Assembly (NCBI GenBank): GCA_016179965.1
Contig: JACPCF010000008.1
Span: 9,601-73,600 of the forward strand
DNA length: 64,000 nucleotides
DNA from: Candidatus Rokuibacteriota bacterium
GTDB lineage: Bacteria; Methylomirabilota; Methylomirabilia; Rokubacteriales; CSP1-6
Direction of reading: 5' to 3'
Part shown: piece by piece, positions 41,766 to 60,937 of the stretch
Numbering within the stretch: position 1 is the first letter of the stretch
How the letters are laid out: the number at the start of each line of letters is the position of its first letter
Program-made: the position numbers and the translations under genes
Notes under the pieces: model-generated
Told to the model about the DNA's origin: nothing
Database searches by the model: none
What the model saw: the letters and a program-made list of their open reading frames with translations, nothing else

Positions 41766-41932
41766 CGCCGTTCCCGCAGGGGCAGCATACCATCCGCGCG
41801 CAAAGCCGGGCAACCGCCCGTCCCTTGTCGCCGGGGGGGAAATCCCCTATAATCGCCGCACTCTGGACCCGTGAAGGCGAAAGACCTCCTGGCTGCCCCA
41901 CGACGCTGGCCCTGAAGGAGGGACACGACTCA

Positions 41933-43357
41933 ATGGCTGAGCCCGAGCCCCTCAAAGGCGGGCGCCGGGGCCGACCGCCCTGGCCCGCAACCCCTCCGCC
42001 GACCCCCGACGAGGTGTATGGCAGCCTCGCCGAGCAGGCGCGGGAGTACCCGAAGTTCCTCGAGTCCATCGTCCACCCGGACAAAACCTTCAACAAGCCC
42101 GAGGCGCTCGACCGCATCCGCGTCCTGGACTGCTCCACGGGCATGATCATCGGCCACTGGGCTTCGTCCATGCTGGCGGAGCTGGGCGCGGAGGTCATCC
42201 AGGTGGAGCCGCCGGGGGGCGATCCCCTTCGCCAGCTCACCCCGTTCGGACGCAAGGAGTACATGGTCAAGGACAAGCAGCGCGGGGAGCCCGTCGGGCT
42301 GCACTTTCTCCACGAGATGAGGAACAAGCTCGCGGTCACCCTCGACCTGGACAAGAAGGAAGGGCGCGAGATCCTCCAGAAGCTCGCCACCCACGTGGAC
42401 GTCATCATCGAGAACGCGCCTCCCGGCCAGTGGGACAAGTGGGGGATCGGCTACCGCCAGCTCTCGAAGCTAAACCCGCGCCTGGTCTACTGCTGGGTGG
42501 GCCAGCGCGGGCAGTGGGGGCCGCTCAAGGACAAGCCGGGCATGCGCGACCCGGTGGCCCAGTGCGCCTCGGGCTTCGTCCACGCCACCGGGGACCCGAA
42601 GGAGTTCGGCGGGCGGCCCACGCGCTCGGGGATGTGGGTGGCCGATCACGTCGGCGGCACGGCCGCCGCCATGGGGATCGTCGCGGCCCTCAATCACCGC
42701 GAGCGCACCTCGGGCAAAGGCCAGTTCATCGAGGCCACCGCCGCGGAGGGGATCATCCGCATCCTGGATTACAACTGGGTGTGGCACGGCATGGACGGGT
42801 CCATTCGTCCCCGGTACGGCAACTGGGACCTAGCCATCAACATCTACGCGGTCAACCCGTGCAAGGACGGCTACATGATGGTGGGCGGCGGCCACGACCG
42901 CCTCTGGTACCGGATCTGGAAGACGGTCGGCGACGAGGTACCGCAGGCCGAGGAGGAGATCATCGCCGACACCAACCTCCGCAACATCTCCGAGCGGCTT
43001 CCCCACACCCGCCAGGTGAAGACGTACACGCTGCTCTGCGAATGGCTGAAGGACAACACGCGCGCCGAAGCGGAACGGAAGCTGGTCCGCCAGGAGGTCG
43101 CCTCGGGCGGCGTCATGGCCATCCACGAGGTGGCGGAGTACCCGCACTTCAAGTACCGGAAGCAGGTCGCCGAGTTCGACGACCAGCTCTACGGTAAGGT
43201 GCTGGTCGGCACCTCGCCGCACCTCGCCGAGAAGATCCCCGCCCGGCTGAAGTGGATCGGCCGGCCCGTGGGGTATGACAACGAAGAGGTGTACCGGCGC
43301 CTGCTGGGCTTCACCCGCGACGATTTCGACCGACTCGCCAAGCAGGGGGTAATGTGA
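41933..43357 (+). CDS. family III CoA-transferase (CaiB/BaiF/Frc family), paralogue 1
   Basis: N-terminal L(D/E)xxRVLD...G.WASSMLAELGAEVIQVEPPGGDPLR, central GYRQL and PRLVYC blocks. Confidence 0.85.
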   Translation: MAEPEPLKGGRRGRPPWPATPPPTPDEVYGSLAEQAREYPKFLESIVHPDKTFNKPEALDRIRVLDCSTGMIIGHWASSMLAELGAEVIQVEPPGGDPLRQLTPFGRKEYMVKDKQRGEPVGLHFLHEMRNKLAVTLDLDKKEGREILQKLATHVDVIIENAPPGQWDKWGIGYRQLSKLNPRLVYCWVGQRGQWGPLKDKPGMRDPVAQCASGFVHATGDPKEFGGRPTRSGMWVADHVGGTAAAMGIVAALNHRERTSGKGQFIEATAAEGIIRILDYNWVWHGMDGSIRPRYGNWDLAINIYAVNPCKDGYMMVGGGHDRLWYRIWKTVGDEVPQAEEEIIADTNLRNISERLPHTRQVKTYTLLCEWLKDNTRAEAERKLVRQEVASGGVMAIHEVAEYPHFKYRKQVAEFDDQLYGKVLVGTSPHLAEKIPARLKWIGRPVGYDNEEVYRRLLGFTRDDFDRLAKQGVM

Positions 43358-44754
43358 TGGCGGCCAGGGGGAAGAAGCCCAACAACCAGAACGCGCGCCC
43401 GCCGAAGCCGGTCGCCAACCCAGACTTCGAGCGCTACTGCCGTCAGACCTTCAGCCCCGCGTCCACCTTCGCCAAGCCCGAGGTCCTCAAGGGCTACCGG
43501 GTCCTCTCCTGCACCCAGTACATTCTGGGGCCCTCCTGCGCCACCTATCTGGGCGAGCTCGGCGCCGAGGTGATCAAGATGGAGCTGCCGCGCCGCGGCG
43601 AGCCCATGCGCCACTCGACGCCGGGCAACGAGGGCTTCCTCTATCCGCTGTCGCGCTGGGTGCCGCAGTCGGGGACCGGCCTCGGCTTTTTCGGCGCCAA
43701 CTTCAATGAGTATTTCATCTCCATGGACTTCCACCGGTCCGAGGCGCGGGAGCTCATGTATCGGCTCGCCGCCAAGGCCGACGTCATGGTGGAGAACTAC
43801 CGCCCCGGCACCTTCGACCGCTGGGGGATCGGCTACCGCCAGCTCCGCGAGATCAATCCACGCCTGATCTACGTCTGGCTCGGCGGCTTCGGGGGTTGGG
43901 GACCCGGGCGCGTGCGGGCGTCGTACGACATCCTGGGCCAGGCCCAGGGCGGCGCCTTTTCGATTACGGGACAGCCGGAGGAGTTCGGCGGCTCCCCCTC
44001 CAAGCACACCATCTGGCTCGCCGACTACTGGGGCGGGATGATGGGGGCGCTGCACGCGCTCTCGGCGCTCTACTGGCGCGACAACGTGTCGGGGGAGGGG
44101 ACCTTCATCGAGTACAGTCAGGTCCACGGCGTCAGCCGCCAGCTCGAGTATGCGCTCCCCCTCTACGGTCGCCAGGGCGTGATCCGCGAGCGCTGGGGCA
44201 ACTGGGACACCGAGCTCTGCGTGCACGGGATCATCAAGTGCGGCAAGTCGTCCTATCCCAACTCCGACAACCCCCAGGAGCAGGAGGAAGGGTACGTCCT
44301 GATCTCGGCCTACGAGGACGAGGACTTCGCCCGCCTCGCGAAGGCTATCGGCCAGGAGAAGTGGGTGCGGCTTTATAAGAGCCATGATGCGCGCGTCAGC
44401 CCGGAGAGCCAGCGCGAGATCTACCCCGCGCTCGAGGCCTGGGCCAAGGACAAGACCAAGGAGCAGGTCGCCCAGATCCTGGATCGCGCCGGGATCATCA
44501 CGCAGCCGGTCTGGAACGCCAAGGAGGTGGCCGGCCATCCCCACTGGCGCGAGCGCGGCTCGATCCGCTGGCTCGACGATCCGACCTACGGGGACGTGCT
44601 CTCCCAGGGGCCGGCCTACAAGATGTCGGACACGCCCCCCCGGGTGAAGTGGGCGCTCAAGCCCATCGGCGCCGACAACGAGCTGATCTACGGCAAGCTG
44701 TGCGGCCTCTCTGCCGAGGAGCTCAAGCGCCTCGAGGCCGAGGAAATCATCTGA
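43354..44754 (+). CDS. family III CoA-transferase, paralogue 2
   Basis: Same architecture (YRVLSCTQYILGPSCATYLGELGAEVIKMELP, GIGYRQLREINPRLIYV); start overlaps the upstream stop. Confidence 0.85.
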   Translation: MMAARGKKPNNQNARPPKPVANPDFERYCRQTFSPASTFAKPEVLKGYRVLSCTQYILGPSCATYLGELGAEVIKMELPRRGEPMRHSTPGNEGFLYPLSRWVPQSGTGLGFFGANFNEYFISMDFHRSEARELMYRLAAKADVMVENYRPGTFDRWGIGYRQLREINPRLIYVWLGGFGGWGPGRVRASYDILGQAQGGAFSITGQPEEFGGSPSKHTIWLADYWGGMMGALHALSALYWRDNVSGEGTFIEYSQVHGVSRQLEYALPLYGRQGVIRERWGNWDTELCVHGIIKCGKSSYPNSDNPQEQEEGYVLISAYEDEDFARLAKAIGQEKWVRLYKSHDARVSPESQREIYPALEAWAKDKTKEQVAQILDRAGIITQPVWNAKEVAGHPHWRERGSIRWLDDPTYGDVLSQGPAYKMSDTPPRVKWALKPIGADNELIYGKLCGLSAEELKRLEAEEII

Positions 44755-45149
44755 TGCTGCTGAAGTGCGACAAGTGCGGGGTGAAGAACTACCTGGACCC
44801 GTATCCCTTCTGGAACTTCAAGGGGAAGACGAAGTGCGCCGGCTGCGACACCTACTACGCCGTGGAGATCGCCAACGGCAGCCCGGTCAGGCCGGCGCAG
44901 CCTGTCGGCGGGACGCTGAAAGACCCTGACCTCCGGCTCCCCGGCTTCGCCGACACGCCTGACTTCAAGCCCGTGACGGGGGAGGGGAAAACCCGCCCGG
45001 CCCCCCGCGCCCGGGCCGACGTCTATGGCAAGCCCAAGCCCGTCGTGAGGAACTCCCGGGGGCGCCTTGTGGCGGGGCGCCCGCTCAAACCCGAAGAGCT
45101 GGTGGGATCCCGCGCCCGCTACATCGCGGAGGGGAAAGAGCCCCGGTGA
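44754..45149 (+). CDS. small zinc-ribbon protein embedded in the CoA-transferase cluster
   Basis: ATGA overlap with upstream stop; MLLKCDKCGVKNY...KTKCAGCDTYY has two CxxC pairs; basic C-terminus. Confidence 0.5.
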   Translation: MLLKCDKCGVKNYLDPYPFWNFKGKTKCAGCDTYYAVEIANGSPVRPAQPVGGTLKDPDLRLPGFADTPDFKPVTGEGKTRPAPRARADVYGKPKPVVRNSRGRLVAGRPLKPEELVGSRARYIAEGKEPR

Positions 45150-45303
45150 GACACCCGGCGTTCCGACATTATCTGGACGCCGTTCGGGCGCGGGCCTTGC
45201 CGCGACCCGCGCCACGTAAAGTGGCGCGGGTGCCCGTAGAGGTGGCTCGCCTTCGCTCGCGCTTGCGTCAAGGGGGAAGGGGGGCGGAGCCCCCCTCCGA
45301 GGT

Positions 45304-46635
45304 ATGAGTGAGTCGTACTTCGACTGGACGCGGAAGCTCTTCGATCGGACCCGGATCTTCGACAAGCCCGAGGCCCTGCGCGGGGTCCGGGTCCTCGAGC
45401 TGACCACCCTCGTCCTCGGACCCTCCACCGCCGACTTCCTCGGCGAGTTCGGCGCCGAGGTCGTCAAGGTGGAGCTGCCCCCCGGCGGCGACACCATGCG
45501 CTACGTGACGCCCGAGGCCACCTACTGGCAGAACGCGTCGCTCGGGTTCTTCCCCACGAATCACTCCAAGTACCACGTGGGAATCGACCTCCACGCCCCC
45601 GAGGGCAAGGAGCTTTTCAAGCGGCTGGCGGCCAAGTCCGACATCTTCGTGGAGAATTTCCGGGCGGGCACGCTCGATAAGTGGGAGATCGGCTACCGGC
45701 AGCTCCGCGAGGCGAACCCGCGCCTGATCTATGTCGCCGACTCGGGCTTCGGCCAGTGGGGGCCGTTCTCCCAGGGGCGCGCCTCCTACGACGCCGTGGC
45801 GCAGACGGTGAGCGGCATGATCGGGATCACGGGCTTCCCCGGCCGGCCGCCGATCCTGTGCGGGATCTTCGTCGGGGACTGGTTCGGGGGGCTGATGGCT
45901 TCCACCGCCGCGCTGGTCGCGCTCCATCATCGCCACAAGACCGGCGAGGGGCAGTTCATCGATTTCGCTCAGTCGGAAGGGCTGATCCGCTCCCTGGACT
46001 GGACGTGGGTCCGCCACGGACTGACGGGCCAGGACCGCGGACCGGCGGGGAACCGCGACGAGGCCATCGTGCCGGCCGATTTCCTGGCCTGCCGCGACGG
46101 GTTCGTGGCCCTGGCCGCGGGCAGGGACGAGGAGTTCAGGGGCCTCTGCGCCGCCATGGGAAGCACGGAGCTGGCCAAGGACCCCCGCTTCGCGACCCTG
46201 GAGGTGCGCCAGGTTCCCGCCAACGCCGGGGCGCTGCTCGCCCTCATCAGGAAGTGGGCCGCGGACAAGTCGCGCGCGGAGCTTGAGGGGCTGGGGGAAA
46301 AGCACGGCTTCGCGTGCTGCCGGGTGGCGAACGCCGAAGACCGGTATCGCGATGAACACCTCCGCGAGCGGGGGGCGGTCTGGCAGTACGATGATCCCCT
46401 GTACGGCCCGATGGTGGAGCAGGGGCCCGCTCCCAAGCTGTCGGCCACGCCGGGCCGCATGCGCTGGGCGGCCAAGCCGGTGGGCTGGCACAACGAAGAA
46501 GTGCTGACCCGCCTCCTCGGGCTTTCTCCCGGCCGGATCAAGCAGCTGGAGGAAAAGAAGGTCGTCGGCCGGTGGGCCGACCGCCCGGGGGCGAAGCCCC
46601 CCGACCAGTGGCTGAAAGCCCACGAGCAAAAATGA
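45304..46635 (+). CDS. family III CoA-transferase, paralogue 3
   Basis: RVLELTTLVLGPSTADFLGEFGAEVVKVELPPGGD, GYRQLREANPRLIYV. Confidence 0.85.
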   Translation: MSESYFDWTRKLFDRTRIFDKPEALRGVRVLELTTLVLGPSTADFLGEFGAEVVKVELPPGGDTMRYVTPEATYWQNASLGFFPTNHSKYHVGIDLHAPEGKELFKRLAAKSDIFVENFRAGTLDKWEIGYRQLREANPRLIYVADSGFGQWGPFSQGRASYDAVAQTVSGMIGITGFPGRPPILCGIFVGDWFGGLMASTAALVALHHRHKTGEGQFIDFAQSEGLIRSLDWTWVRHGLTGQDRGPAGNRDEAIVPADFLACRDGFVALAAGRDEEFRGLCAAMGSTELAKDPRFATLEVRQVPANAGALLALIRKWAADKSRAELEGLGEKHGFACCRVANAEDRYRDEHLRERGAVWQYDDPLYGPMVEQGPAPKLSATPGRMRWAAKPVGWHNEEVLTRLLGLSPGRIKQLEEKKVVGRWADRPGAKPPDQWLKAHEQK

Positions 46636-47942
46636 CCGATCAACCCCACTCCTGGCCCCGGTACGCGAAGGAGATCACCGACCCCGCGCTGGCTCACGAG
46701 AAGCCGGAGGCGCTGGACGACCTCCGGGTGCTCGACGCCAGCAGCGGGAACTTCGCCGCCCTGTTCGCCTCGTCGATCCTCGCGGAGTTCGGGGCCGAAG
46801 TGATCCGCCTGGAGCCGCCGGGGGGGGACGTGGCCCGGCTGTTCTCCCCTCAAGGCGTGAAGCACCGGGGCACGGGCCTGGCCTACCTGGTCGAGGCGCG
46901 GAACAAGCGCCACATCACGCTGAACCTCGACAAGCCGGCGGGGCGCGAGCTGTTCGCCCGCCTGGCCCGGCACGTGGACGTCGTGATCGAAAGCGCCAAG
47001 CCGGGGCAGATGGATGCCTGGGGCATCGGCTACCGGCGGCTGAGCGCGGGAAACCCGAGGCTGATCTACCTGGCGTTCTCGACCTACGGCCAGTTCGGGC
47101 CCAAGGCCGCCTCGCCGATCCCCGATTACGACATCACGAACCAGGCCCTCTCCGGCACGCCCTACACGACCGGGGAACCCGCAGGGGAGGGCGGGCCCGA
47201 ATCCTCGGTTCCCACGAAGCAGGGCAACTGGATGGCCTGGTACGTCGGCGGCGGGTGGGGGGCCTTCGCCGTGCTGGCGGCCCTGATCTGGCGGGAGGCC
47301 TCCGGCCAGGGGCAGTTCATCGACTGCTCGCCGGCCGAGGCCGAGATGCGCTTCACGGACTACGACATCCACTGGTATCACGCGAACAAGCGGATCCGCG
47401 AGCGTCTGGGGGCGCTGAACGTCAGCGTCTTTCCCTACACGCTCATTAAGACGAAGGACTCCTACTCGTTCATCGCCGGGTTCTCCGATATCAACTGGAC
47501 CGGCCTCACCAACATCGTGGGTCGGCCCGATCTGAAGGAACGCTACCCCACGACGAAGGCCCGGATCGGGGAGAGCAAGCTGCTCCACCGCGAGCTGGAG
47601 GGCTGGGCCGCCGGCCTCACCTCCCAGGAAGTCCTCGACCGAGTCCAGGACTACGTGGCCAACAAGCGGGGCCCGGGGACCGTGGCCTCCGCCCGCCTCA
47701 ATCGGCCTTCCGATACCCTCGGCGAAACTCATTGGTGGGAACGGGGGGTCTTTGAGAGAATAGGAGATCCGGACTACGGGGAGCTCCTGCTGCAGGCGCC
47801 CCCGTGGAAGATGTCCCGGACGCCGCCCCGGATCAAGTGGGCCTGCCGGCCGGTGGGGGCGGACAACGAGATGGTGTACCTGAAGTACCTGGGCCTGGGC
47901 CGGGAGCGGCTCCAGGCCCTGAAGGCCGAGGGCGTCATCTAG
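46632..47942 (+). CDS. family III CoA-transferase, paralogue 4
   Basis: ATGA overlap with paralogue 3; LRVLDASSGNFAALFASSILAEFGAEVIRLEPPGGD. Confidence 0.85.
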   Translation: MTDQPHSWPRYAKEITDPALAHEKPEALDDLRVLDASSGNFAALFASSILAEFGAEVIRLEPPGGDVARLFSPQGVKHRGTGLAYLVEARNKRHITLNLDKPAGRELFARLARHVDVVIESAKPGQMDAWGIGYRRLSAGNPRLIYLAFSTYGQFGPKAASPIPDYDITNQALSGTPYTTGEPAGEGGPESSVPTKQGNWMAWYVGGGWGAFAVLAALIWREASGQGQFIDCSPAEAEMRFTDYDIHWYHANKRIRERLGALNVSVFPYTLIKTKDSYSFIAGFSDINWTGLTNIVGRPDLKERYPTTKARIGESKLLHRELEGWAAGLTSQEVLDRVQDYVANKRGPGTVASARLNRPSDTLGETHWWERGVFERIGDPDYGELLLQAPPWKMSRTPPRIKWACRPVGADNEMVYLKYLGLGRERLQALKAEGVI

Positions 47943-48993: not shown

Positions 48994-50649
48994 ATGGGCA
49001 AGATCCCTCCGCACTACCTGCCGCCGAAGGAGCTCTGGCCTCAGCGGCTCTATACCCTGCCTGAGCACAAGACGTATCCCCAGAAGCTGAACTCCACCGA
49101 AGAACTGGTGGACCGCCACGTGGAGGCCGGCAGCGGCGACCGCGTGGCGATCCTCTTCGAAGACCAGAAGATCACCTACAAGGCCCTCCAGGCGGGGGTC
49201 AACAAGCTCGGCTCGTCGCTCAAGGGGCTCGGCATCGAGGAGGAGGACCGCGTGCTCCTCCGCTCCCCGTCCATCCCCCCGGCTCTGGTCGCCAACTTCG
49301 CCGTCATCAAGATCGGGGCGATCGCCGTGCCGACCTCGCCCCTCTTCTCCCGAGCGGAGCTCGCCCACGTGGCGGCGAACACGGAGGCCGTCGCCCTCAT
49401 CGTGGCGGCCCCCCTGCTGGAGGAGGTGGAGAAGGCGCGCGCCGACCTCAAGACGATCACGCACATCATCGTCATCGGTGGCGAGCCCGCGGATCTGAAG
49501 GCCAAGGGCTACATCCCCTACGGCGAGCTGATGGCCAAGGGGTCGGAGAGGCTCGAGCCCGTTCGCCGGGACCGGATGGCGGTGTCGGTGCTGCTCTTCA
49601 CCTCAGGGACCACCGGCCTCCCCAAGGGCACCGTTCACTTCATGGAGGAGGCGCTGATCGTCCCCGACGGCTTCGGCAAGTACGGCTGGCGGGTCACCCC
49701 GGACGACGTGATCGGCGGTCCGGCGCCGCTGTCGCTGGCGGCGGGCTACTCGACCCAGGCCGTCATCCCCTTCCGCTTCGGCGGCGCGGTCTCGCTGCTG
49801 CCGCGCTTCACGCCGGAGGGGATGTTCGAGACGATCCAAAAGCACCGAGTCACGGTCGTGTCCATCCTCCCCACCGCGTACCGGAAGATGCTCCAGGTGC
49901 CGAACGCGGAGAAGACCTATGACATCTCCTCGGTCAGGATCTTCACCGGGGGCGGGGAATCGCTGACCGCCCAGACCTACCACGACTGGAAGACCAAGTT
50001 CGGCAAGGAGATCTACGAGGGGCTCGGCACCACGGAGATGATGTTCGTCTTCGTCTCCTCCGCCGTCACCCGCAAGGTGAAGCCCGGCGCCATCGGCCCG
50101 GCCGTGCCCGGCTACGAGCTCCGGGTGATCACCGAGGACGGCAAGGAGTGCAAGCCCGGGGAGGTCGGGCTCCTGATCGCGCGGGGGCCCACGGGGACGG
50201 TGTATTGGCGTGATCCAGATAAGCAGCGCTCCGCGGTGAGGGAGGGCTGGTGCCGCGCCGGCGACTTCGTCACGCTGGATGAGGACGGCTACGTCTGGTT
50301 CCTCTCGCGGGAAGACGACCTGATCAAGTCCTCAGGCTACCGGATCGGCCCCGAGGAAATCGAGGAGGCCCTGGCCAAGCATGCCGCCGTGGCCGACGTG
50401 GGCGTCATCGGGGTCCCCGACGCCGTGCGCGGCCAGAACACGCGCGCCTATGTAGTTCCCAAGCCCGGCTCGGCGCCCTCGGAGGCGCTCAAGCAGGAGC
50501 TGATCGAGTTCTGCCGCGACAAGATCGCGGTGTACAAACTCCCCCGCGAGATCGAGTTCACCGAGAGCCTGCCTCGCGCCCCGGGCCCCGCCGGCCCGGG
50601 GACCGGAAAGCTCCTGCGCCGCGTCCTCCGCGAGAAGCTGAAGGCTTAG
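48994..50649 (+). CDS. AMP-forming acyl-CoA or aryl-CoA ligase (adenylate-forming family)
   Basis: AMP-binding signature TSGTTGLPKG, YGTTE-like GLGTTE, GYRIGPEEIE hinge, C-terminal conserved Lys region. Confidence 0.85.
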   Translation: MGKIPPHYLPPKELWPQRLYTLPEHKTYPQKLNSTEELVDRHVEAGSGDRVAILFEDQKITYKALQAGVNKLGSSLKGLGIEEEDRVLLRSPSIPPALVANFAVIKIGAIAVPTSPLFSRAELAHVAANTEAVALIVAAPLLEEVEKARADLKTITHIIVIGGEPADLKAKGYIPYGELMAKGSERLEPVRRDRMAVSVLLFTSGTTGLPKGTVHFMEEALIVPDGFGKYGWRVTPDDVIGGPAPLSLAAGYSTQAVIPFRFGGAVSLLPRFTPEGMFETIQKHRVTVVSILPTAYRKMLQVPNAEKTYDISSVRIFTGGGESLTAQTYHDWKTKFGKEIYEGLGTTEMMFVFVSSAVTRKVKPGAIGPAVPGYELRVITEDGKECKPGEVGLLIARGPTGTVYWRDPDKQRSAVREGWCRAGDFVTLDEDGYVWFLSREDDLIKSSGYRIGPEEIEEALAKHAAVADVGVIGVPDAVRGQNTRAYVVPKPGSAPSEALKQELIEFCRDKIAVYKLPREIEFTESLPRAPGPAGPGTGKLLRRVLREKLKA

Positions 50650-51194: not shown

Positions 51195-52193
51195 TCAGTA
51201 GCCGTCGCCCTGGAAGGCCCGCCGGCCGCCGCGGCCGGTGATCTCGGCCGCGATGTTCGCGGCCACGGCCTCCGCCTCGTAGTGGGCGAAGACCCCGGCC
51301 TTGGGGAGCATCAGTCCGACCGGCAGCTTGATCGCCGTGACATCACCGAGGGCATAGACGCCCTCATGAGCGGTCTGGAGGGTCCCCTTGTCTACCGGCA
51401 CCCAGCCGGCCTCTCCCACCAGCCCGGACTCCTTGACCACAGGCGGGCAGCGGTGGGGCGGAATCGCCACGAGGAGGTCGTAGTCGGCCCGCTCCCCGTT
51501 CTCGAAGACCAGCTCCTGCCGCTCGGATTCCACCGCCTGGAGCTTGTGCTGAGGGTGGAAGTCGATGCCCTTGCTCGCGACCATGGCCTTCACGGCTTCT
51601 CCCATCGCCTTGCCCGCGACGGGCATCGGAAGAGGCTCGGGGGTGTAGATGTCCAGCCGAGCCCGCTCGCGGAGCCCCCGCTCCCGGAGGGAGGCCTCGA
51701 TCAGCATCGCCGCCTCGTAGGGGGCCCCGGGGCACTTGAAGGGCAGGCTTGCTACCGTCACCGTCACCCGGCCTTCCTTGAACGACGTGAGGGCCTGACG
51801 GAGCCCCAGCACGCCGTCCAGATCGTAGAGGTTATGGCCGCCCTCTGCCAGGCCGGGGACCGCCTCCGCCCGCCCCTCGGCCCCGAGGGCCACGATCAGG
51901 AAGTCGCCTGAGATCTGGCGCTTGTCGGTCCTGACGAGGCGCCGGGCCGGGTCGATCTCCCTGATCTCCTCGTGCACCACTTCGATTCCCTTCCGCTCCA
52001 GCCGGCTCAGGTCGCGGGTGATCTCCCGCGGCTCCCGCCATCCGAGCATCATCCAGAGAAAGGACGGGGTATAGACGTGCTGCGCCGCGCGGTCCACGAG
52101 GACGATCCGGTGCTTCCGGTCGAGGCTCCGCCTCAGCGTGTTGGCGGCCACCAGCCCTCCCACGCCCCCGCCGAGAATCACGATCGTCGCCAT
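51195..52193 (-). CDS. FAD-dependent pyridine-nucleotide-disulfide-family oxidoreductase, sulfide:quinone oxidoreductase-like
   Basis: Rossmann motif IVILGGGVGG at the N-terminus, second dinucleotide site, Cys-containing FKCPGAPYE segment, C-terminal GDV motif; 332-aa real CDS within a 524-aa ORF-track artefact. Confidence 0.7.
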   Translation of the reverse strand: MATIVILGGGVGGLVAANTLRRSLDRKHRIVLVDRAAQHVYTPSFLWMMLGWREPREITRDLSRLERKGIEVVHEEIREIDPARRLVRTDKRQISGDFLIVALGAEGRAEAVPGLAEGGHNLYDLDGVLGLRQALTSFKEGRVTVTVASLPFKCPGAPYEAAMLIEASLRERGLRERARLDIYTPEPLPMPVAGKAMGEAVKAMVASKGIDFHPQHKLQAVESERQELVFENGERADYDLLVAIPPHRCPPVVKESGLVGEAGWVPVDKGTLQTAHEGVYALGDVTAIKLPVGLMLPKAGVFAHYEAEAVAANIAAEITGRGGRRAFQGDGY

Positions 52194-53090: not shown

Positions 53091-54350
53091 TCAGAAGGCG
53101 TAGCGGACGACGGCGTAGAGGTTCGAGTTTCCCTCGAACTGGCCGAACTCGGCGCGGCGAGGGCCGCCGAAGAGGTTCAGGCCAAGGGCGGCCCACAGGG
53201 CATCCGTCACGTTGTATTTGACCTCGGGGTTCACGTAGAAGTCCCCCTCGTTGGGGCTTCCGAGGACGAACAGGCCGAGCCTCAGCGTCTGGTTCCAGAA
53301 GAGCTGGGTGAGCCGCGCCGTGAGGACATGGCGGATGGTCGGGCGGTTGGCCATCCCGGGCCCCCGGGTCGCCCGGTACGCGTCGTGGTCCTCCATGACG
53401 TCGCCGGCGTACTGGAGGCCCAGCGTCAGGTCCGGCGCCAGCTCCCGCTGGTATCCGGCCAGATACTTCCCCCGGGAGTTCTCGACGGCGGCGTTCCGCC
53501 CCGACCGGTCCCGCCGCGAGTCGTAATAGCCCCCCTCGAGGCTCACCACCCCGCCCAGCGCCGCCCCCTGGGCGCTCCAGCCGTAGACGTTGAGCGGCGG
53601 GAAGAAAAGGCGGAGGCGCGGGCCCGGCTCGACCTCCCCCGCCGGGGCGCGGTGGAACCCGCGGTAGGCGTAGAGCGACAGGTCCCAGCCCAGGAGGTTC
53701 CTGAAGAGCCTTCCCCCCACCTCCGGGCCTTCGGCGCCCGGCGAGGGGTCATCAGTGTTACGGCTCTCGATCGCGGCCATGGGGTCGTTGAAGCGCAGCC
53801 GTCCCCCTGCTTCGGGCAGCGTGTCGGCCTCGAAGCGGGGAACGAGCACGACCTGAAGCGACGTGCCGCCCCAGTGGCCGGTGGCCGAGAGCCCGTCCGA
53901 CCCTTTTTTCAGATATTCGAGCGGGAGGCCGGAGATGAAGGCCACCCAGTCCTTGGGGAAGACGTCGTTGATGAAGATCAGGTCGCCCACTCCCCAGGTG
54001 ATGATCTGCCGTCCCAGTCTGAGGTCCACGGCCGGAAATCGAAGGTCCAGGTAGCCTTCCCGCAGGTCGCCGTCCACCTCGCCCCCCACGGCATCGCCGA
54101 TCAGCTCGCCCTTGGCGACGAGCCCCCACCACTCGCCGCGCGGGGTCAGCTCGAGCCGCCCCCGCCCCTCGCCGAGGACGAACTCCTCCCGGCACGCGAG
54201 CCGCTGGGTTCGAGGGCAACGGTCGGGCTGGATCAGCCGGTAGGCGGACGCGGCCTGGACAAAGCCGTGGAGCGGGATCTCCTCCGCCGCCGCGGCCCCC
54301 CGGGCGACCAGGAGCGAGGCGAGCAGGAGGAGCCCGAACCGGCGCCTCAC
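53091..54350 (-). CDS. outer-membrane beta-barrel protein (DUF1302-like), third gene of the MMPL export cassette
   Basis: Signal peptide RRFGLLLLASLLVARGAAAA; alternating amphipathic beta-strand pattern; C-terminal aromatic signature ...YAVVRYAF. Confidence 0.7.
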   Translation of the reverse strand: MRRRFGLLLLASLLVARGAAAAEEIPLHGFVQAASAYRLIQPDRCPRTQRLACREEFVLGEGRGRLELTPRGEWWGLVAKGELIGDAVGGEVDGDLREGYLDLRFPAVDLRLGRQIITWGVGDLIFINDVFPKDWVAFISGLPLEYLKKGSDGLSATGHWGGTSLQVVLVPRFEADTLPEAGGRLRFNDPMAAIESRNTDDPSPGAEGPEVGGRLFRNLLGWDLSLYAYRGFHRAPAGEVEPGPRLRLFFPPLNVYGWSAQGAALGGVVSLEGGYYDSRRDRSGRNAAVENSRGKYLAGYQRELAPDLTLGLQYAGDVMEDHDAYRATRGPGMANRPTIRHVLTARLTQLFWNQTLRLGLFVLGSPNEGDFYVNPEVKYNVTDALWAALGLNLFGGPRRAEFGQFEGNSNLYAVVRYAF

Positions 54351-55165
54351 CGGGAGAGTTCGGCCGGCGGCGCCCGGAGCGCGCGCTCGCTGAAGAGGTC
54401 GGGGGAGAGCTTCTGGTTGTAGCGGACGTCGGCAAAGACGGCCTCCGTGAAGTGGCCGGTCTGGGTGTTCTTCATGACCCGTTTGGTGACCGTCCAGAAC
54501 CCCTGGATCTCCTTCAGCTCCTCGGCCGTGAAGACCCGCGCGAGCTCGCCGCGCCGGTCGTAGTACTCTTCCTTCAGCGGAAGCCACGTGGCCTTGTCGA
54601 TCCAGGACACCTTCCGAGTGAAGTCCACGCTGCCCGGGTCCTTCGGGACGCTCTCGACGACGGAGGCGGCGCGCTCGCCGACCTTCTCCCCCCGGAGCAG
54701 CTTGTGGGTGTCCTCCTCGGGCTCCCGGCCGGAGACGTCCTCGTAGGAGAAGTCGGAGCCCGCGAAGCTCGACCGCTTGTCGCTGGCGGCGATCCGGCGC
54801 ACCAGCTTGAGGGCCGGGACGTAGAGCCAGCGGTCGTCGTCCCTCCCCGGGTACTTCCAGACCAGGAATGTCATGTCGCGCACGTCGGGTGGGCGGTGGA
54901 AGTAGATGAAGTACCGCTGCTCGCCCCCGTCCTGGAGGTCCCGCCGTGACATGGTGAGCTCCCGGACCCTCTCCTTGCCGTCCCGCGACACGAGGCGCAT
55001 CGTCACGCGCGCCCGCATGTCCTCCCCGGGGTAGAACATGGCCAGGTGGGCCTTGGCCATGATCTCCTCGGCCGTGGGCTGCGCGGCGGCCGGCGCCACC
55101 GCAAGCACAGCGAGACCCGCCACCACTGCCACCCAACCGGCCCGCCGAAGGCCGAGGACCATCAT
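54347..55165 (-). CDS. LolA-like outer-membrane lipoprotein-sorting-fold protein (DUF1329-like)
   Basis: Signal peptide; LolA-like domain; ATGA-type overlaps on both sides with the MMPL and OMP genes. Confidence 0.7.
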   Translation of the reverse strand: MMVLGLRRAGWVAVVAGLAVLAVAPAAAQPTAEEIMAKAHLAMFYPGEDMRARVTMRLVSRDGKERVRELTMSRRDLQDGGEQRYFIYFHRPPDVRDMTFLVWKYPGRDDDRWLYVPALKLVRRIAASDKRSSFAGSDFSYEDVSGREPEEDTHKLLRGEKVGERAASVVESVPKDPGSVDFTRKVSWIDKATWLPLKEEYYDRRGELARVFTAEELKEIQGFWTVTKRVMKNTQTGHFTEAVFADVRYNQKLSPDLFSERALRAPPAELSR

Positions 55166-57480
55166 GTCGATCCTCCTCTGAACAGCCAGCCCTCCAGCAA
55201 GATGATCAGCGCGGGCAGATAGATGATCACCATCAGGGCGCTCAGCATCATCATGCTCACGATGAACGCGCCGACGGTAATGTACGGGGTCAGCGGGGCG
55301 AACATCATCACGGCGAAGGACGCTGCGAAGAGCACGGCGTTACGCATGATCCCTTTGCCGGGCCGTGCGGCCGTCCACAGCAATGACTCGGTGATGAGTT
55401 CGGAGTTCGGGGTGCCGACCGAACTTTCCGCCAGCCGTTGTTTGAACCTGCCGATGAAATGAATCGCAAAATCCACTGCCATGCCTAAAGAGAGACACGA
55501 AAGCACGGAGATGGGCATGTCAAACCTCTTGCCGCTGAATCCCACCACTCCGTAAATGAGGAGGATCGTGAACAGGAGCGGGACATAGCCGACGACGGCC
55601 CACTTGAAAGAACGGAAGTTGAAGATGAGGATGACGAATACCGCGATAAGGGCGGCAATGAACCCCTTGACCATATCCCACAGGACCTCGTCATTCCAGA
55701 CGAGATTGAAATACGCGATTCCTGCCGGCTTGAGCTCCAGCGGGAACGGATGCGCCTTCTTGTAGTCATCGACCGCTCGTATGACTTCCTCCATCGCCTG
55801 CGCGTCCCAGGTCTTGAGCTGAACCCATATGTTGGCTTGGCTAAAAGGATAATCAACCACATTGTTCAGGTCCGATGCTTTCGCGGACATGCTGAAGAGG
55901 AACAGGTATTGGCCGACAGCCTCCTTTGTCTCAGGGATCACGTCAAATCCGGCATCGTCGTCATGGAGGACGCGGTTGATCCTCTTCACGTAATCCGCGA
56001 CAGAGAAGGTTTTCCCCACAATGGGCAGTTTTTCCAGATGCCGCTGGAGGCTCTCGATGTATCTCATTGCTTCGGGGTTCTTGATGAAGTCCTCCTCCTT
56101 CGAGATCGCCACCACATAACCTGTGGACGTGCCGCCGAGCGCCCTGTTGATCTGGGTGTCCGCGATCCGTATCTCGCTCTGTTTCTTGAACCACTCCACC
56201 ATGTTATTGTTCACCACGATGTTTGTGACCCCGATGATCGCCACGACACACAGCAGAGCGCCCACGAGGACGGTCACTTGGGGCCGATGGGCGCCAAATC
56301 CGGCGAGCCCTCTCAGGAACCGCGATGCCTTGCTGAACGAGACATCCTCTCCCCGTGCTGCCTTCTCTATATTTTTCTCCTTCACGAAGGTAAACATCGC
56401 GGGAACGAAGCTGAAGCTCAAGATCCTCAGCGCCACCGTGCCGAATGCCACCAGACCTCCAAAGACCCTGACCGGAATGATGTTCATGAACAATAACACG
56501 GCGAAGCCTGCAGCCGTTGCCAGGGCCGTGTACCGCACAGGGCGGCCTACCGCATGCATGGTCTCTATGATTGCAACCTTCTTATCTTTGCGCTCCCTGT
56601 AGCGGAAGTAGAACTCATTGAAGATGTGAATGCTGTCTGTCGCGATGGCCATCAAGAAGACGGGAGCCATTGAGCTCATGATGTGAATAGGGAATCCGAA
56701 CGCTATCAAGAGCCCCATGCTCCAGACGATGCTGATCATCGCATCCATCATCAGCGTGATGGAGAGGAAAAGGTCCCTGAACATGAGATACCGGACCGCC
56801 AGCATCACCATGCCTGCGATCGGCGCAAAGATTGCCATGAGCCTGAACATCTCGGCGCCGAATGTGTCCCTCGCGACCGGATCGCCCGCGATGTAGTATT
56901 TCTCCGCGCCCTTCTCTTTCCTCACGATCTCCCGGATCTTGTCGGCCACCTCCTTGCCATTGGCCCCCTTTTCCAGAGGGACATAGATGGCCGTGGTCTT
57001 GCCATCCTTCGAGATGATGCGGTCGACGAAGAGGGGATTTCCGAAAAGCATCTTGCGGAGCTTCGCAACCTCTTGATCCGTCTTCGGGACCTCCGGCATG
57101 AGAGGGGCGACCGTCAAGATCCCGGACTCGGATGTCACGTTGGTGATGGTGGGGAAGCCGTTGACATCCTGGACGGCCGCTCCCTTGAGCTTGAGGATTG
57201 CGTCCGTGATACTGCTGATCCTCGCGAGGGTCTCGCGGTTGAGGACGCCTCTGTCATTCACGATCCCCAGGACGATCATGTCCTCGTAGAGCGCAAACGT
57301 CTTGTCCACTTCGTCGTTCCACACCCTGACATCGGATGTGGCCGGAAGCATGTTCTTGGGATTCGTATCGGTCTTCATCCTCGGGAACTGCGTCATAAAG
57401 GCGAGGGTGAAGATTATCGTCAGAGAGACAATCAACTTCGGATGTGCGACGGAAAATTCAACAAGTGAAAACTTCAGCAT
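55162..57480 (-). CDS. MMPL/RND-superfamily exporter (HpnN-like, two 6-TM bundles with periplasmic loops)
   Basis: 772 aa, TM1, large loop, TM2-6, repeated; MMPL-type sterol-sensing-like region. Confidence 0.85.
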   Translation of the reverse strand: MLKFSLVEFSVAHPKLIVSLTIIFTLAFMTQFPRMKTDTNPKNMLPATSDVRVWNDEVDKTFALYEDMIVLGIVNDRGVLNRETLARISSITDAILKLKGAAVQDVNGFPTITNVTSESGILTVAPLMPEVPKTDQEVAKLRKMLFGNPLFVDRIISKDGKTTAIYVPLEKGANGKEVADKIREIVRKEKGAEKYYIAGDPVARDTFGAEMFRLMAIFAPIAGMVMLAVRYLMFRDLFLSITLMMDAMISIVWSMGLLIAFGFPIHIMSSMAPVFLMAIATDSIHIFNEFYFRYRERKDKKVAIIETMHAVGRPVRYTALATAAGFAVLLFMNIIPVRVFGGLVAFGTVALRILSFSFVPAMFTFVKEKNIEKAARGEDVSFSKASRFLRGLAGFGAHRPQVTVLVGALLCVVAIIGVTNIVVNNNMVEWFKKQSEIRIADTQINRALGGTSTGYVVAISKEEDFIKNPEAMRYIESLQRHLEKLPIVGKTFSVADYVKRINRVLHDDDAGFDVIPETKEAVGQYLFLFSMSAKASDLNNVVDYPFSQANIWVQLKTWDAQAMEEVIRAVDDYKKAHPFPLELKPAGIAYFNLVWNDEVLWDMVKGFIAALIAVFVILIFNFRSFKWAVVGYVPLLFTILLIYGVVGFSGKRFDMPISVLSCLSLGMAVDFAIHFIGRFKQRLAESSVGTPNSELITESLLWTAARPGKGIMRNAVLFAASFAVMMFAPLTPYITVGAFIVSMMMLSALMVIIYLPALIILLEGWLFRGGST

Positions 57481-57481
57481 A

Positions 57482-57811
57482 TCAGAGCGCGCCGATCACG
57501 CGATCGTGGTCAACGGCCAGCAGCGCCGACACCCCGGCGTGACCGAGGGGAACCGCGGGCTCGCAGGGCCTGAGCCCGCGGGCGGCGAGATCCTCGTCGA
57601 GAACGAGCAACCGGGCCCCGCGCTCGAGGAGCCGTTCGAGCCGGGTCGCGGTCTCGCGGGGTAAGTGGTCGCCTGCTAGAAGCACCGCGTCCTGGAGGCA
57701 GCAGAGGGTGAGGACGTGCCCTTGGTCCACGAGAGACTCAACGATCGACAGCGCGCGCTGCCCAGCCGAAGACGCGGGAGAGCTCGATAGCACCACGAGG
57801 ATCGAGGCCAT
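57482..57811 (-). CDS. TusB/DsrH-like sulfur-relay subunit
   Basis: LTLCCLQDAV and LVLDEDLAARGL align with E. coli TusB LLLLQDGV and YALNEDLIARGL. Confidence 0.6.
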   Translation of the reverse strand: MASILVVLSSSPASSAGQRALSIVESLVDQGHVLTLCCLQDAVLLAGDHLPRETATRLERLLERGARLLVLDEDLAARGLRPCEPAVPLGHAGVSALLAVDHDRVIGAL

Positions 57812-57821
57812 GGCGTCCTCC

Positions 57822-58187
57822 TCAGAAGATCAGCGTGCGGTCGCAGCGGGCGAGGGCTCCCGCGATCTCCTCCAGCGACGACGCCCGGGTCCCCTGGATG
57901 AAGTCGCTGGCGCGGAGTCCCCGGACCTCGAGGGCTCCCTCGTCTACGAGCACGGCGGCCCGTCCGTTTCCCTTCCGGATGAACTCGGCCACGGCTTCTC
58001 CGAGACACGTCCATTCATCGGCCGGTGGCGACTGGCCAGGCAGCGCGGTGAGGACCGCATCTCCCGTCAAGGCCAGGACCACCTCCCACCCTTTCCCCAG
58101 GGCGCCCAGCGCATGGCGGAGGGCCTCGGCCGGCTGGATGCTCCCGTAGGGCGCGCGATCTACGAGGACGCAGAGCGACTTCGCCAC
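57822..58187 (-). CDS. TusC/DsrF-like sulfur-relay subunit
   Basis: 121 aa, DsrE/DsrF-fold pattern (LCVLVDRAPYG...VVLALTGDAV...AAVLVDEGALEVRGL). Confidence 0.6.
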   Translation of the reverse strand: MAKSLCVLVDRAPYGSIQPAEALRHALGALGKGWEVVLALTGDAVLTALPGQSPPADEWTCLGEAVAEFIRKGNGRAAVLVDEGALEVRGLRASDFIQGTRASSLEEIAGALARCDRTLIF

Positions 58188-58191
58188 GGCC

Positions 58192-58548
58192 CTACCCCCC
58201 GAAGGTCAGGACGGCGTGGCTCTCGTCGAGGTGAGCCAGCAGCCGCGAGAGCGAGCCGACGCGCGCGCCCTCCAGGAGATCCTCATCCGCGATTCCCCTG
58301 AATCGCAGGCAGGACCCTCAGAGGTCCACGGCCCCGCCGCGGGCGAGGAATGCCTGGGCGGCGCCGCCGACGTCGAAGACGGACGCCGCCTTCTGCTCCC
58401 TGACGAAGCCGTACACGCCGTCGCCGGTGGCGAAGATCGTGGGCCGGTGCCCGGCCTCGAGCGCCGCCGCGGCGAGCTTGAGCGCCGTGCCGGCTGCCTG
58501 GCCGGAGTAGGGGCTGGCGGTCAGGACGAAGGTCAGGCGCTTCTCCAT
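58192..58548 (-). CDS. TusD/DsrE-like sulfur-relay subunit with in-frame UGA at the catalytic-Cys position: candidate selenoprotein (Sec77)
   Basis: MEKRLTFVLTASPYSG...GGAVDL[UGA]GSCLRFRGIADEDLLEGARVG...AVLTFGG. The TGA (58318-58320, minus strand) aligns with Cys78 of TusD/DsrE (NIC|VAAALRRG). Reading through gives a full-length 118-aa TusD. A 9-bp stem / AGGG loop lies 9 nt downstream of the UGA. Confidence 0.6.
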
Positions 58549-58552
58549 CGCG

Positions 58553-58870
58553 TTAGCTCCGCGCGCCGCTCCGCCGGCTGCCGGCCGTGGCCGCTTTGAC
58601 CAGCCGCCGCCCCTCGGAGAGCTGCTCGAACAGCACCTCCCGCATGATGTCGAACGCGCGGAGGATCTTGGGGTTGGCCGCTTTGAGGATCGCCAGGTGC
58701 TGCGAGAGGTTCGGCATGCTGGTCCCGACCCGTCGCGCCAGCTCGGCCACGGCCATCTCCTGCTCCCGCAGCGCATTGAGGATCTTGAGCCGCGTGGGAT
58801 TGGACAGGATCTGGCAGACGCTCGCGTGCAGCTCGTAGATCCGGTCGTCGGTGTGCCTCGCTGGCTCCAC
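58553..58870 (-). CDS. ArsR/SmtB-family metalloregulatory transcription factor
   Basis: wHTH SNPTRLKILNALREQEMAVAELARRVGTSMPNLSQHLAILKAAN; first gene of the minus-strand arsR-tusDCB-MMPL operon. Confidence 0.8.
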   Translation of the reverse strand: MEPARHTDDRIYELHASVCQILSNPTRLKILNALREQEMAVAELARRVGTSMPNLSQHLAILKAANPKILRAFDIMREVLFEQLSEGRRLVKAATAGSRRSGARS

Positions 58871-59331: not shown

Positions 59332-60409
59332 TCACCCTACCTCTCCCCACGGGGGAGAGGATAAAGGTGAGGGGGCGATCCGCAGCAGGTCGTCGAGGAG
59401 GAGGACGAGGCGTTCCAGATCTCGGGCCTGGCGGAGCCGGGAGCGCCACCCCCCCTCGGACGGGAATGCGTGAGTGAAGCCGTCGAAGATGACGAGGCGC
59501 CCCAGGTTCGGGGCGGCCCGGGCGAGGCTCACGCTCTCCGTGTAGGGGATCGAGTCGTCATTGCGGCCGTGGGCGATGAGGAGGCGCGCCTTCACTCCGC
59601 CGCAGCGAGGCGAGCAGATCGGCCACGCGATCGTGCCGGCGGTTTTCTACGAGAGCCAGAAGCCGCCACCCCTCGACCCCGAGCTTCCCCAGCTCTCGCC
59701 TCACGTCCTCGCCGGGGTTCGCCAGCTTCCGGTCCACCAAGCGCTGAAGGCGCTCGCGCTCGCCAGGATCCGCGACGTACGGCACGAGGGCAGCCACGAG
59801 CTTCCAGCGGTTGAAGGACTGCTGAGTGGCCTGGCGCCCTTGTCCGTCCTCCTCGTACCACCCCGTAGTGACGAAGCCGATGACACCGGCGAGGTCCCAG
59901 TAACCACCGAAACTGCCGACGAGGGCGACCTGATCCCGGATCGCGGGGTCCGCAGCGGCAAGGAGCGCCGGCCCCGCGCCGAAGGAAAAGCCGAGGATGC
60001 CGATAGGATCCCCAGCCTCAGCCCTCAGGACCTGAACAGCCCTCACGATCGTGTGCACATCGCCCTCTGAGACGTGGAAGGCGCGGAGGTCGGGAAAGTC
60101 GGGGGCCAGCACCACGAAGCCCGCCCGGGCGAGGCTCCTGGCCAGGCGCTGAAAGGCCGGATGGTCCTTCCCCTGCCGCGAGAGCCCGGGGACGAGGACG
60201 AGCCCGCCACGCGCGGGACGCCCCGGGCGATAGAGGTCGGCGTCGGTGGCGTCGAAGGAAGCCCGATCGAGGCTGACAGAGTGAACCGTGGGCACCCAGC
60301 CGGGGACGAGCAGGTCCAGGGCCAGGAGGTGGGCGGACGCGAGGCGGCCCATCCTGGGGGCCGCGAGGAGGACGAGGACGGCCAGGGCCAGGGCGAGGCT
60401 GCGCCTCAT
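59332..60409 (-). pseudogene. alpha/beta hydrolase (paralogue of 13501-14622) with a frameshift near 59600
   Basis: Collinear with the 13501 protein up to ...LALVENRRHDRVADLLASL; the continuation VKARLLIAHGRNDDSIPYTESV...FDGFTHAF is in the -1 frame (ORF 59332-59595). Confidence 0.55.
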
Positions 60410-60937
60410 CCCATGGGCTGGTCCACCCCGGGGATCAGCTCGATGAGGCTCCGGCGCAGGCGGTCGTCCTGGAGGAGCTCGGCTCCGGGCCCCGAGAGCG
60501 CCACGCGGCCTTCTTCCAAGAGGTAGGCGCGATGAGCGAGGCGCAGGAGCCGGCGCACGTGCTGCCCCGCCGCGAGGATCGTCATCCCCTCGGCCGTGAT
60601 CTCCCTGATGGCCTGACAGAAGCGGTTGATCACGGGGCGCGCGAGCCCCAGGAACGGGTCGTCCAGGCAGAGCAGCCGCGGGCGCGCCATGAGCCCCCGG
60701 GCCAGGGCGAGCATCTGCTGCTCGCCCGTCGATCCGTTCCCCGTCGAGGCGGATGGCGCCGGCCCTGACGGGCAAAAGCCCAGTGATGGTCTTGAGCAGC
60801 GTGGACTTTCCCGCGCCGTTGGGGCCGACGAGCGCGATGAACTCGCCGGCCCTCACCTCGAGGGAACACGCATGGAGCACGCGCACGTCATCATAGCCCG
60901 CCTCGACCCGGTCCACTTCCAGGAGGCGCGCGATCAT
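60406..60937 (-). pseudogene. livF: livF-type ABC ATPase with ~190-nt internal deletion plus frameshift (Q-loop to signature-motif region missing)
   Basis: N-fragment (Walker A GPNGAGKST ... IRLDGERIDG, frame 1) is joined within ~10 nt to the C-fragment starting MLALARGLMARPRLLCLDDP (Walker B, D-loop, H-loop; frame 3). About 65 residues present in all LivF homologues are absent. Confidence 0.65.

Follow-up and report, generated by a model that had tools for sequence, protein, structure and literature searches.

Does the TGA that interrupts a DsrE-like gene of a Candidatus Rokuibacteriota bacterium end the protein, or is it decoded as selenocysteine (Sec, U)? The gene lies on contig JACPCF010000008.1 of assembly GCA_016179965.1, in a stretch of 64,000 nucleotides (nt; positions 9,601 to 73,600 of the forward strand) that was analysed as a whole and is here called the window; coordinates are given within it. 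Rokubacteria are placed inside Methylomirabilota by GTDB, and NCBI taxonomy lists Rokuibacteriota as a separate phylum. A first, sequence-only reading of the locus had proposed a candidate selenoprotein in which UGA replaces an active-site cysteine and is followed by a hairpin resembling a selenocysteine insertion sequence (SECIS), and strong comparative evidence now supports that proposal. Taken as a whole, the locus is in all likelihood best explained as encoding a 118-residue selenoprotein of DsrE/YchN fold, with Sec at position 77, that may form part of a persulfide-handling module. That the UGA at codon 77 is read through as Sec would appear, from the sequence comparisons set out below, to be at least as safe a conclusion. 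Three elements carry the argument:

58192..58548, minus strand: DsrE-like candidate selenoprotein gene, 118 codons plus TAG; Sec would be codon 77, in the motif U77-G-S-C80.
58318..58320, minus strand: in-frame UGA, the putative Sec codon; TGA in 35/35 Rokubacteria-type loci and in 21 Desulfobacterota/Nitrospirae loci.
58287..58308, minus strand: SECIS-like hairpin, CUGCGAUUC-AGGG-GAAUCGCGG.

The reading frame itself is straightforward to describe. On the minus strand the open reading frame (ORF) begins with ATG at 58548 and runs through 76 sense codons (58548-58321) to TGA at 58320-58318, after which the same frame stays open for a further 41 codons (GSCLRFRGIADEDLLEGARVGSLSRLLAHLDESHAVLTFGG) up to TAG at 58194-58192; the stop at TGA and the continuation to a protein of 118 residues had been noted before, and both the coordinates and the domain match agree with them. 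With U written as C, the 118-residue product spans profile positions 1-116 of the 116 in Pfam DsrE (PF02635; E 1.5e-19) and, with the UGA read through, scores 70.7 bits against a cutoff of 22.7, so that a 76-residue product would be a domain cut mid-way. The downstream gene begins 4 nt past the TAG; were the protein to end at the TGA, a gap of ~130 nt would open in an otherwise tightly packed operon, and the tight spacing therefore requires the full-length ORF. There is a single in-frame UGA, and it falls within a U-x-x-C motif (L-U77-G-S-C80). Elsewhere in the window TGA is the commonest ordinary stop codon, closing 16 of 32 Pfam-supported genes, which leaves no room for a global reassignment of TGA in this lineage.

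Databases have nonetheless treated the codon as a stop. A metagenome-assembled genome (MAG) of Candidatus Rokubacteria holds a 76-residue ‘DsrE family protein’ that matches the window product at 100% identity, and a further ~50 database clusters, 64–92% identical to that product, are all called at 75-76 residues, that is, they stop at the same place as the window ORF. If these calls were right, the TGA would be a true stop behind a 76-residue DsrE fragment, and what follows would be non-coding or the decayed remnant of a pseudogene. Some ~100 database clusters called at 75-76 residues, as well as three damaged genes just upstream in the window, can be cited in favour of this alternative, yet the tail is more conserved than the part that precedes it: compared with the orthologue at locus L064, the 41 residues after the UGA (58195-58317) are 97.6% identical and the N-terminal 76 residues (58321-58548) 77.6%. 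Variation in the tail is also biased towards third codon positions, with 19, 15 and 30 variable columns at first, second and third positions, compared with 14, 21 and 34 in the 40 codons before the TGA. Furthermore, the tail completes the Pfam domain from 1 to 116, ends at a constant position and abuts the next gene, whilst a 76-residue fragment would, on the structural model described below, be left without the active-site helix and two further structural elements. To judge from these alignments, the post-TGA tail is behaving as coding sequence under protein-level constraint, and a genuine stop at this codon is very improbable. The database entry for the window gene is, in consequence, a wrongly truncated protein of 76 residues.

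Whether the codon is itself an artefact can be judged from its distribution among relatives, where the codon at this column is as follows:

Species-representative genomes, Rokubacteria: 5 loci, TGA.
Species-representative genomes, Desulfobacterales or deltaproteobacterial: 20 loci, TGA.
Species-representative genomes, Nitrospirae: 1 locus, TGA.
Metagenomes, Rokubacteria-type: 22 loci, TGA.
Contig look-ups, Rokubacteria-type: 7 loci, TGA.

The 35 Rokubacteria-type loci are thus the window and 34 others, from independent samples and assemblers. In the genome loci G-[ST]-C-[LF]-x-F-R-G comes after the TGA and leads into ~40 conserved tail residues with the same end position, and the 22 metagenome and 7 contig look-up loci share the same TGA, motif and tail; U-G-[ST]-C is present in 56/56 TGA-bearing loci, and the Leu codon immediately before the UGA is CUC in 26/26 Rokubacteria sequences. 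The sequence-only reading had left it to orthologues to say whether this column holds Cys or Sec, or whether the protein ends at 77 residues: TGA and the conserved tail are there in all 56 loci. Three indel-type lesions nearby on the contig might suggest that a TGC or TGT was turned into TGA by faulty sequencing or assembly, but an identical codon in the 34 other Rokubacteria-type loci speaks against it, and this possibility is already effectively refuted. Conservation of the TGA across loci, a tail constrained as seen against L064 and the normal use of TGA as a stop together exclude sequencing error and pseudogene for practical purposes, and both were rejected. Two relatives, L059 and the protein P0039, diverge abruptly from the family within the N-terminal region, after ~residue 59 and ~residue 76 respectively; these look like chimeric or rearranged contigs, not variants that lack the TGA.

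Homologues that use an ordinary codon at this position show which residue belongs there. In eight full-length homologues (116-119 residues, 45–50% identical) the sequence reads ...VEL-C-GSCLRFRGL..., with Cys exactly at the TGA column, and the peptide ‘GSCLRFRG’ that follows the TGA in the window is identical to theirs. A profile search recovered 554 family members, of which the best-scoring ~75 are full-length Cys forms; L-C-G-x-C and a downstream Arg are invariant in 62/62 full-length homologues examined, and CxxC is also found in archaeal and Chloroflexi homologues. UGA in some members and Cys in others, at a reactive site that is invariant, is how selenoproteins are classically recognised. 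Profile alignment to Escherichia coli TusD (PDB 2D1P chain A) matches the U column with Cys78, the Cys in ‘...ALNIC VAAALRRG’, which is where the TGA had first been said to fall. The exchange of Sec for an active-site Cys is thereby borne out as to its column, although the earlier account overlooked the second Cys (Cys80) of the U-x-x-C motif, which is invariant and for which TusD/DsrE have no such partner; this implies two-residue chemistry rather than a single-residue carrier of the TusD type.

Read-through also calls for an RNA signal, and bacterial SECIS elements are recognised in the literature by a small apical loop that contains G and lies a short way past the UGA (PMC1088965). The candidate hairpin has this feature in its AGGG loop, as judged by the feature and not by a curated bacterial SECIS model. 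It consists of CUGCGAUUC (58308-58300), AGGG (58299-58296) and GAAUCGCGG (58295-58287), which would form 9 base pairs (bp) including one G.U around a 4-nt loop, 9 nt after the UGA, as had been described; the two outer pairs of this stem vary among orthologues, however, and only the inner 7 bp are conserved. The conserved core is therefore a 7-bp stem, GCGAUUC (58306-58300)/GAAUCGC (58295-58289), with loop AGGG, 11 nt after the UGA. As the Rokubacteria hairpins are invariant, they yield no covariation signal, and a test of synonymous sites was used instead. Across 26 distinct Rokubacteria sequences the hairpin codons CUG CGA UUC AGG GGA AUC (+4 to +9) show almost no synonymous variation: the mean synonymous entropy of these six is 0.04 bits, compared with 0.87 bits in 65 other conserved codons, only 15% of them invariant. 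The hairpin includes codons that are rare in the window (CGA 5.3% and AGG 6.0% of Arg codons, GGA 8.0% of Gly codons), and if the codons for this peptide were drawn according to local usage, the string would come up with a probability of 8e-5. Comparative data of this kind place the hairpin far beyond chance, and by this measure selection acts on it as RNA, which is what one would expect if it is a bacterial SECIS.

Outside Rokubacteria, Desulfobacterales encode a similar peptide (GTCFSFRGLRK) with other codons, and these give rise to another hairpin, UUCCGC-GGUCU-GCGGAA, with the same Arg-Gly codons at its centre. It includes one covarying pair, C-G, U-G and U-A in 12, 4 and 3 sequences respectively, with synonymous changes on both sides. 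A Cys homologue with the same peptide (CGA UUU CGC GGC CUC) is without an equivalent G-loop hairpin; its GC-rich mRNA still folds stably, and it is a single control.

Several observations weigh against decoding as Sec. Firstly, taken alone the hairpin is modest: its minimum free energy is -22.3 kcal/mol (z = -2.1) and 7 of 200 shuffles equal it, in a sequence of 68% G+C. The Desulfobacterales covariation is statistically weak, with the observed score reached in 20 of 500 shuffles, and Rfam has no matching SECIS model, either over the whole window at the gathering threshold or over 58150-58400 at E <= 10, where the chance matches mir-296 and Scr1601 were returned. Secondly, no selA, selB, selD or tRNA-Sec is found in the 64-kb window or the fetched Rokubacteria loci. 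ARAGORN detects no tRNA, and hence no tRNA-Sec, in the window or 25 Rokubacteria loci, and a Pfam scan of ~40 window ORFs gives no SelA, SelB or SelD; the Sec genes were sought in these sequences alone, and the decoding machinery of this genome is presumed. Thirdly, the evidence for Sec at residue 77 is all at the sequence level; the identity of the inserted residue is an inference, though a strong one. A scan of the window for other in-frame TGA junctions, guided by G+C content at third codon positions (GC3), gave no second convincing selenoprotein candidate, and a literature search on Rokubacteria with selenocysteine or selenoproteins returned nothing relevant. For use of Sec in the lineage, support is indirect and comes from phylum-level literature, in which a Methylomirabilota MAG with 63 predicted selenoproteins is reported in a 2026 review (PMC13188914) and Sec-type [NiFe] hydrogenases in Methylomirabilota in a 2026 study (PMC13582414).

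The comparative data prove read-through and a required RNA element, not which residue is inserted, and this leaves room for a further alternative, namely that the UGA is read as cysteine or another standard residue by a non-canonical tRNA with a UCA anticodon, possibly with SelB. Recoding of UGA by such a tRNA is documented (Vargas-Rodriguez et al. 2018, as cited in PMC13582414). Cys homologues, by contrast, simply use TGC or TGT, and the retention of UGA in three phyla, along with a hairpin that is costly to keep, is what marks a Sec codon; moreover, the family appears in a catalogue of selenoproteins (PMC13188914). Insertion of a standard residue is consequently improbable, if less so than a true stop. 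With Sec as the preferred residue, SelB and tRNA-Sec would decode the UGA at codon 77, recruited by GCGAUUC-AGGG-GAAUCGC 11 nt downstream within the coding sequence; under selenium shortage translation should stop at codon 77 and release the same 76-residue fragment that databases record.

The fold was modelled on the Cys homologue P0051, not on the window protein. In the AlphaFold model (pLDDT 94.2) the reactive Cys lies at the end of strand 74-78 and leads into helix 79-84, and among PDB structures the model best matches YchN (template modelling score 0.91), followed by TusD, DsrF and DsrE. By analogy with this model, Sec77 would sit in the active site where TusD/DsrE have Cys78, at the point where a strand ends and the N-terminus of a helix begins, and would be paired with Cys80 in U-G-S-C. 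A sequence-profile search points the same way, with E. coli YchN as the closest solved structure (PDB 1JX7, E 3.3e-13), carrying ‘LCKTC’ at the same site, and TusD (2D1P_A) next (E 1.5e-6).

What such a protein might do has to be sought among its neighbours, which in the window are:

58553..58870, minus strand: ArsR/SmtB-family regulator (HTH_5, HTH_20, NF033788), directly upstream of the selenoprotein gene; position conserved.
57822..58187, minus strand: second DsrE-family gene, in DsrF/TusC position (DsrE 2.2e-13), with no Cys at the active-site column.
57482..57811, minus strand: third gene of the trio, DsrH/TusB-like by a weak match (DsrH 24.0 bits vs cutoff 24.4; TusB 24.2 vs 49.2).
55162..57480, minus strand: MMPL/RND-type membrane transporter, 772 residues (MMPL 1.1e-29); Rokubacteria-specific part of the cluster.
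54347..55165, minus strand: LolA-like / DUF1329 protein, 272 residues (LolA_like 8.3e-64); conserved in synteny.
53091..54350, minus strand: conserved protein of ~415 residues with no Pfam match; start codon uncertain, orthologue 95% identical.
51195..52193, minus strand: SQR/FCSD-like flavoprotein closing the cluster (Pyr_redox_2 2.7e-25, FCSD_central 2e-7); start inferred from a 332-residue orthologue.

This gene order from ArsR to SQR/FCSD recurs in other Rokubacteria, and the SQR/FCSD-like gene of the window is 70.8% identical to that of locus L068. The sequence-only reading had described a trio in tusD-tusC-tusB order behind an ArsR regulator, and the DsrE(U), DsrE-family and DsrH-like genes do indeed stand there. 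Single-sequence PDB searches with the second and third trio genes gave marginal or irrelevant matches. Across phyla the trio alone is constant, and the weak DsrH match is seen in orthologous trios as well. Desulfobacterota contigs other than the one considered below have the trio together with genes for ArsR and a class-I pyridine-nucleotide disulfide oxidoreductase; downstream of Cys-type trios comes a gene for an SQR/FCSD-like flavoprotein, and in one Cys-type genome the trio lies beside an ArsR-rhodanese fusion and a Lactamase_B-rhodanese gene that is persulfide-dioxygenase-like.

As the putative Sec subunit always heads a DsrE-F-H-like trio, and the trio repeatedly adjoins SQR-type flavoproteins and ArsR genes, Sec-assisted persulfide handling emerges as a testable hypothesis. 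In such a scheme, DsrE(U) would act as the reactive partner of the DsrF-like and DsrH-like proteins in a module that is presumably a hetero-oligomer of the TusBCD/DsrEFH type, as the conserved three-gene order and tight spacing suggest. The SQR/FCSD-type flavoprotein encoded nearby would produce a persulfide or polysulfide, Sec would attack it to give an Se-S adduct, and Cys80 would then resolve or pass on that adduct. That the protein handles sulfide-derived sulfane sulfur or persulfide is modestly favoured. Two points count against this assignment, namely that it is drawn from gene neighbourhoods only and that in one Desulfobacterota contig the trio stands alone with no sulfur gene nearby.

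The main functional rival is that the selenoprotein binds or detoxifies a metal or metalloid (As, Hg, Cd, Se or Te species) instead of relaying sulfur, with the U-x-x-C pair as ligand, ArsR as sensor and the MMPL system as exporter. An ArsR/SmtB-family gene does adjoin the trio in Rokubacteria, Desulfobacterota and Cys-type loci, and in Rokubacteria the trio is followed by the MMPL transporter, the LolA-like protein and the conserved ~415-residue protein; DsrE-like CxxC proteins (SaoD) are, in addition, linked to metal and organometal chemistry, as is YedF, with its DsrE-like CGxC domain, to selenium metabolism. Against these stand the recurrent enzymatic neighbours, which are SQR/FCSD-like and class-I disulfide reductase flavoproteins, and the one locus that presents a classic sulfide-detoxification set, with its rhodanese-fused ArsR and persulfide-dioxygenase-like gene. 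The MMPL part, for its part, is lineage-specific and exchangeable, and there is no SaoD-type NCBIfam match. A metal or metalloid role is on this evidence rather unlikely, if still the strongest competitor to persulfide handling. Within the latter, one may speculate, as a long shot, that in Rokubacteria the DsrE(U)-F-H-like complex is the sulfur-accepting heart of an undescribed selenium-dependent pathway, in which S0 would pass from the SQR-type flavoprotein to export by the MMPL, LolA-like and outer-membrane components under the control of a one-Cys ArsR. If true, a persulfide relay built on Sec would be coupled to export through the envelope, and the DsrE-like selenoprotein family would gain its first functional role.

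The neighbourhood has peculiarities of its own. The window ArsR gene has an in-frame deletion of 51 nt relative to L064 and L068, removing 17 residues (RHVVLTRREGVTIYYRI) that form the wing of the winged helix; with the wing lost, this copy may not bind DNA. Further upstream, within 59341-60925 (minus strand), a LivF-like ABC ATPase is missing residues 68-128 and has its halves in different frames, and an alpha/beta-hydrolase is missing ~13 residues with a change of frame near 59603-59613, each compared with an intact L064 orthologue. Together with the ArsR deletion these make three lesions in 2.4 kb, which are either assembly artefacts or real decay. The MMPL gene has 55.7% G+C and a GC3 of 0.775, with neighbours at ~70% and ~0.93, and it is 95.9% identical to the L064 orthologue and 39.6% to the gene at the same position in L068, the LolA-like gene being 87–89% identical to both; from these figures the transporter seems to have been exchanged between lineages. 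Elsewhere in the window, four consecutive CoA-transferase family III genes (41825-47942, plus strand) precede an AMP-binding enzyme (48994-50649), and at 30582-31016 (minus strand) there is a fragment of an IstB-like IS21 helper ATPase covering profile positions 95-236 of 238, a partial match that suggests a truncated insertion-sequence remnant.

For annotation, the consequences are immediate. Roughly 100 listed database clusters are 75-76-residue proteins named ‘DsrE family’, ‘TusD component’, ‘DsrF/TusC family’ or ‘hypothetical’, with the reactive half missing, and none of their names marks a selenoprotein; reading through the UGA restores a complete domain in these misannotated records. General knowledge of selenocysteine decoding or sulfur relays is unchanged by the finding. 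Its value lies in the correction of annotation and in a testable functional hypothesis for a family that has been known by name for ~20 years and is uncharacterised in function (PMC13188914).

Comparison with known systems places the protein more closely. YchN is nearest by both sequence profile and fold, is equally long and has a C-x-x-C (‘LCKTC’) in the corresponding place; it differs in having Cys rather than Sec, in forming a single protein species in the solved structure with no three-gene set, and its function is unknown. With TusBCD of E. coli (2D1P) and DsrEFH of Allochromatium vinosum (2HY5) the window trio shares the fold, the gene order E/D-F/C-H/B and the Cys78 column as the site of the reactive residue, and Joint Genome Institute (JGI) annotation accordingly gives ‘tRNA 2-thiouridine synthesizing protein D’. 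Were the trio the TusBCD of this organism, serving tRNA 2-thiouridine synthesis, far better scores would be expected than the 22-27 bits obtained with TusD/TusC equivalog models whose cutoffs are 79-94 (TusD 22.9 against 89.25, TusC 27.1 against 94.15), or the 24.2 against 49.2 for TusB; TusD and DsrE are also without the invariant extra Cys three residues downstream. No tusA/tusE/mnmA or dsrAB/dsrC is present in the window or any neighbourhood examined, where the neighbours are ArsR and SQR-type genes instead, and a role as TusBCD is hence hardly credible. TusD orthology of the first gene was rejected on the same grounds (22.9 bits against 89.25, and 21.8 against 92 for a second model; TIGR03012, NF001237), such that, of the original TusD/DsrE label, the fold and the Cys78 column survive and the orthology does not, YchN being the nearest solved relative.

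Two other DsrE-like proteins invite comparison. YedF has a DsrE-fold domain whose C-G-x-C shares the spacing and the Gly of U-G-S-C, and its genomic link is to selenium metabolism (PMC5322559); on the other hand, it is a two-domain protein (SirA-like and DsrE-like), and the part of PMC5322559 consulted does not report it as a selenoprotein. Neither a SirA/TusA domain nor yedE occurs in the window cluster. SaoD (CD2369-family, SAO system) is likewise DsrE-like with an invariant CxxC, but is described as ‘never detected as a selenoprotein’ and has a further invariant Cys and metal-transport neighbours (bioRxiv 10.1101/2022.07.06.499078); membership was rejected, there being no SaoD-type NCBIfam match. 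The UGSC-containing selenoprotein family (NF041046) was also considered and rejected, as its model gave no match at E <= 0.01 despite the literal U-G-S-C of the window protein, which thus does not belong to it.

The closest counterpart is a family that has been in print for some time. A ‘DsrE-like protein, Pfam02635, UXXC’ was introduced as a selenoprotein family from Sargasso Sea data by Zhang, Fomenko & Gladyshev in 2005 (PMC1088965), was later recorded in Desulfovibrio vulgaris, and is listed as DsrE-like PF02635 UxxC in PMC1794560 and PMC13188914, the latter giving its function as unknown. The Sargasso Sea member in the 2005 supplement reads ...VPIYI-U-GGCAEARGVSESDL...VVTF (PMC1088965), and the window protein aligns directly with it (AACY01115178; BLASTP E 4e-5, 25% identity), U upon U, sharing UGxCxxxRG, the length of the tail and a tail end of V(V/L)TF. 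Given this alignment and the record since 2005 (PMC1088965, PMC1794560, PMC13188914), the protein does not found a new family, and the novelty first attributed to it was overrated. The likeness extends to the same domain, one Sec in U-x-x-C, Cys homologues with CxxC, a hairpin after the UGA and ~41 residues after Sec. The differences are that the founding marine sequences are distant, at 25% identity, the window clade consisting of Rokubacteria of groundwater and soil, and that the cited family papers make no mention of a trio set among ArsR, MMPL and SQR-like genes. The finding is therefore a correct rediscovery, which adds a new and hitherto misannotated member to a known selenoprotein family, within which the group of the window protein probably forms a distinct clade.

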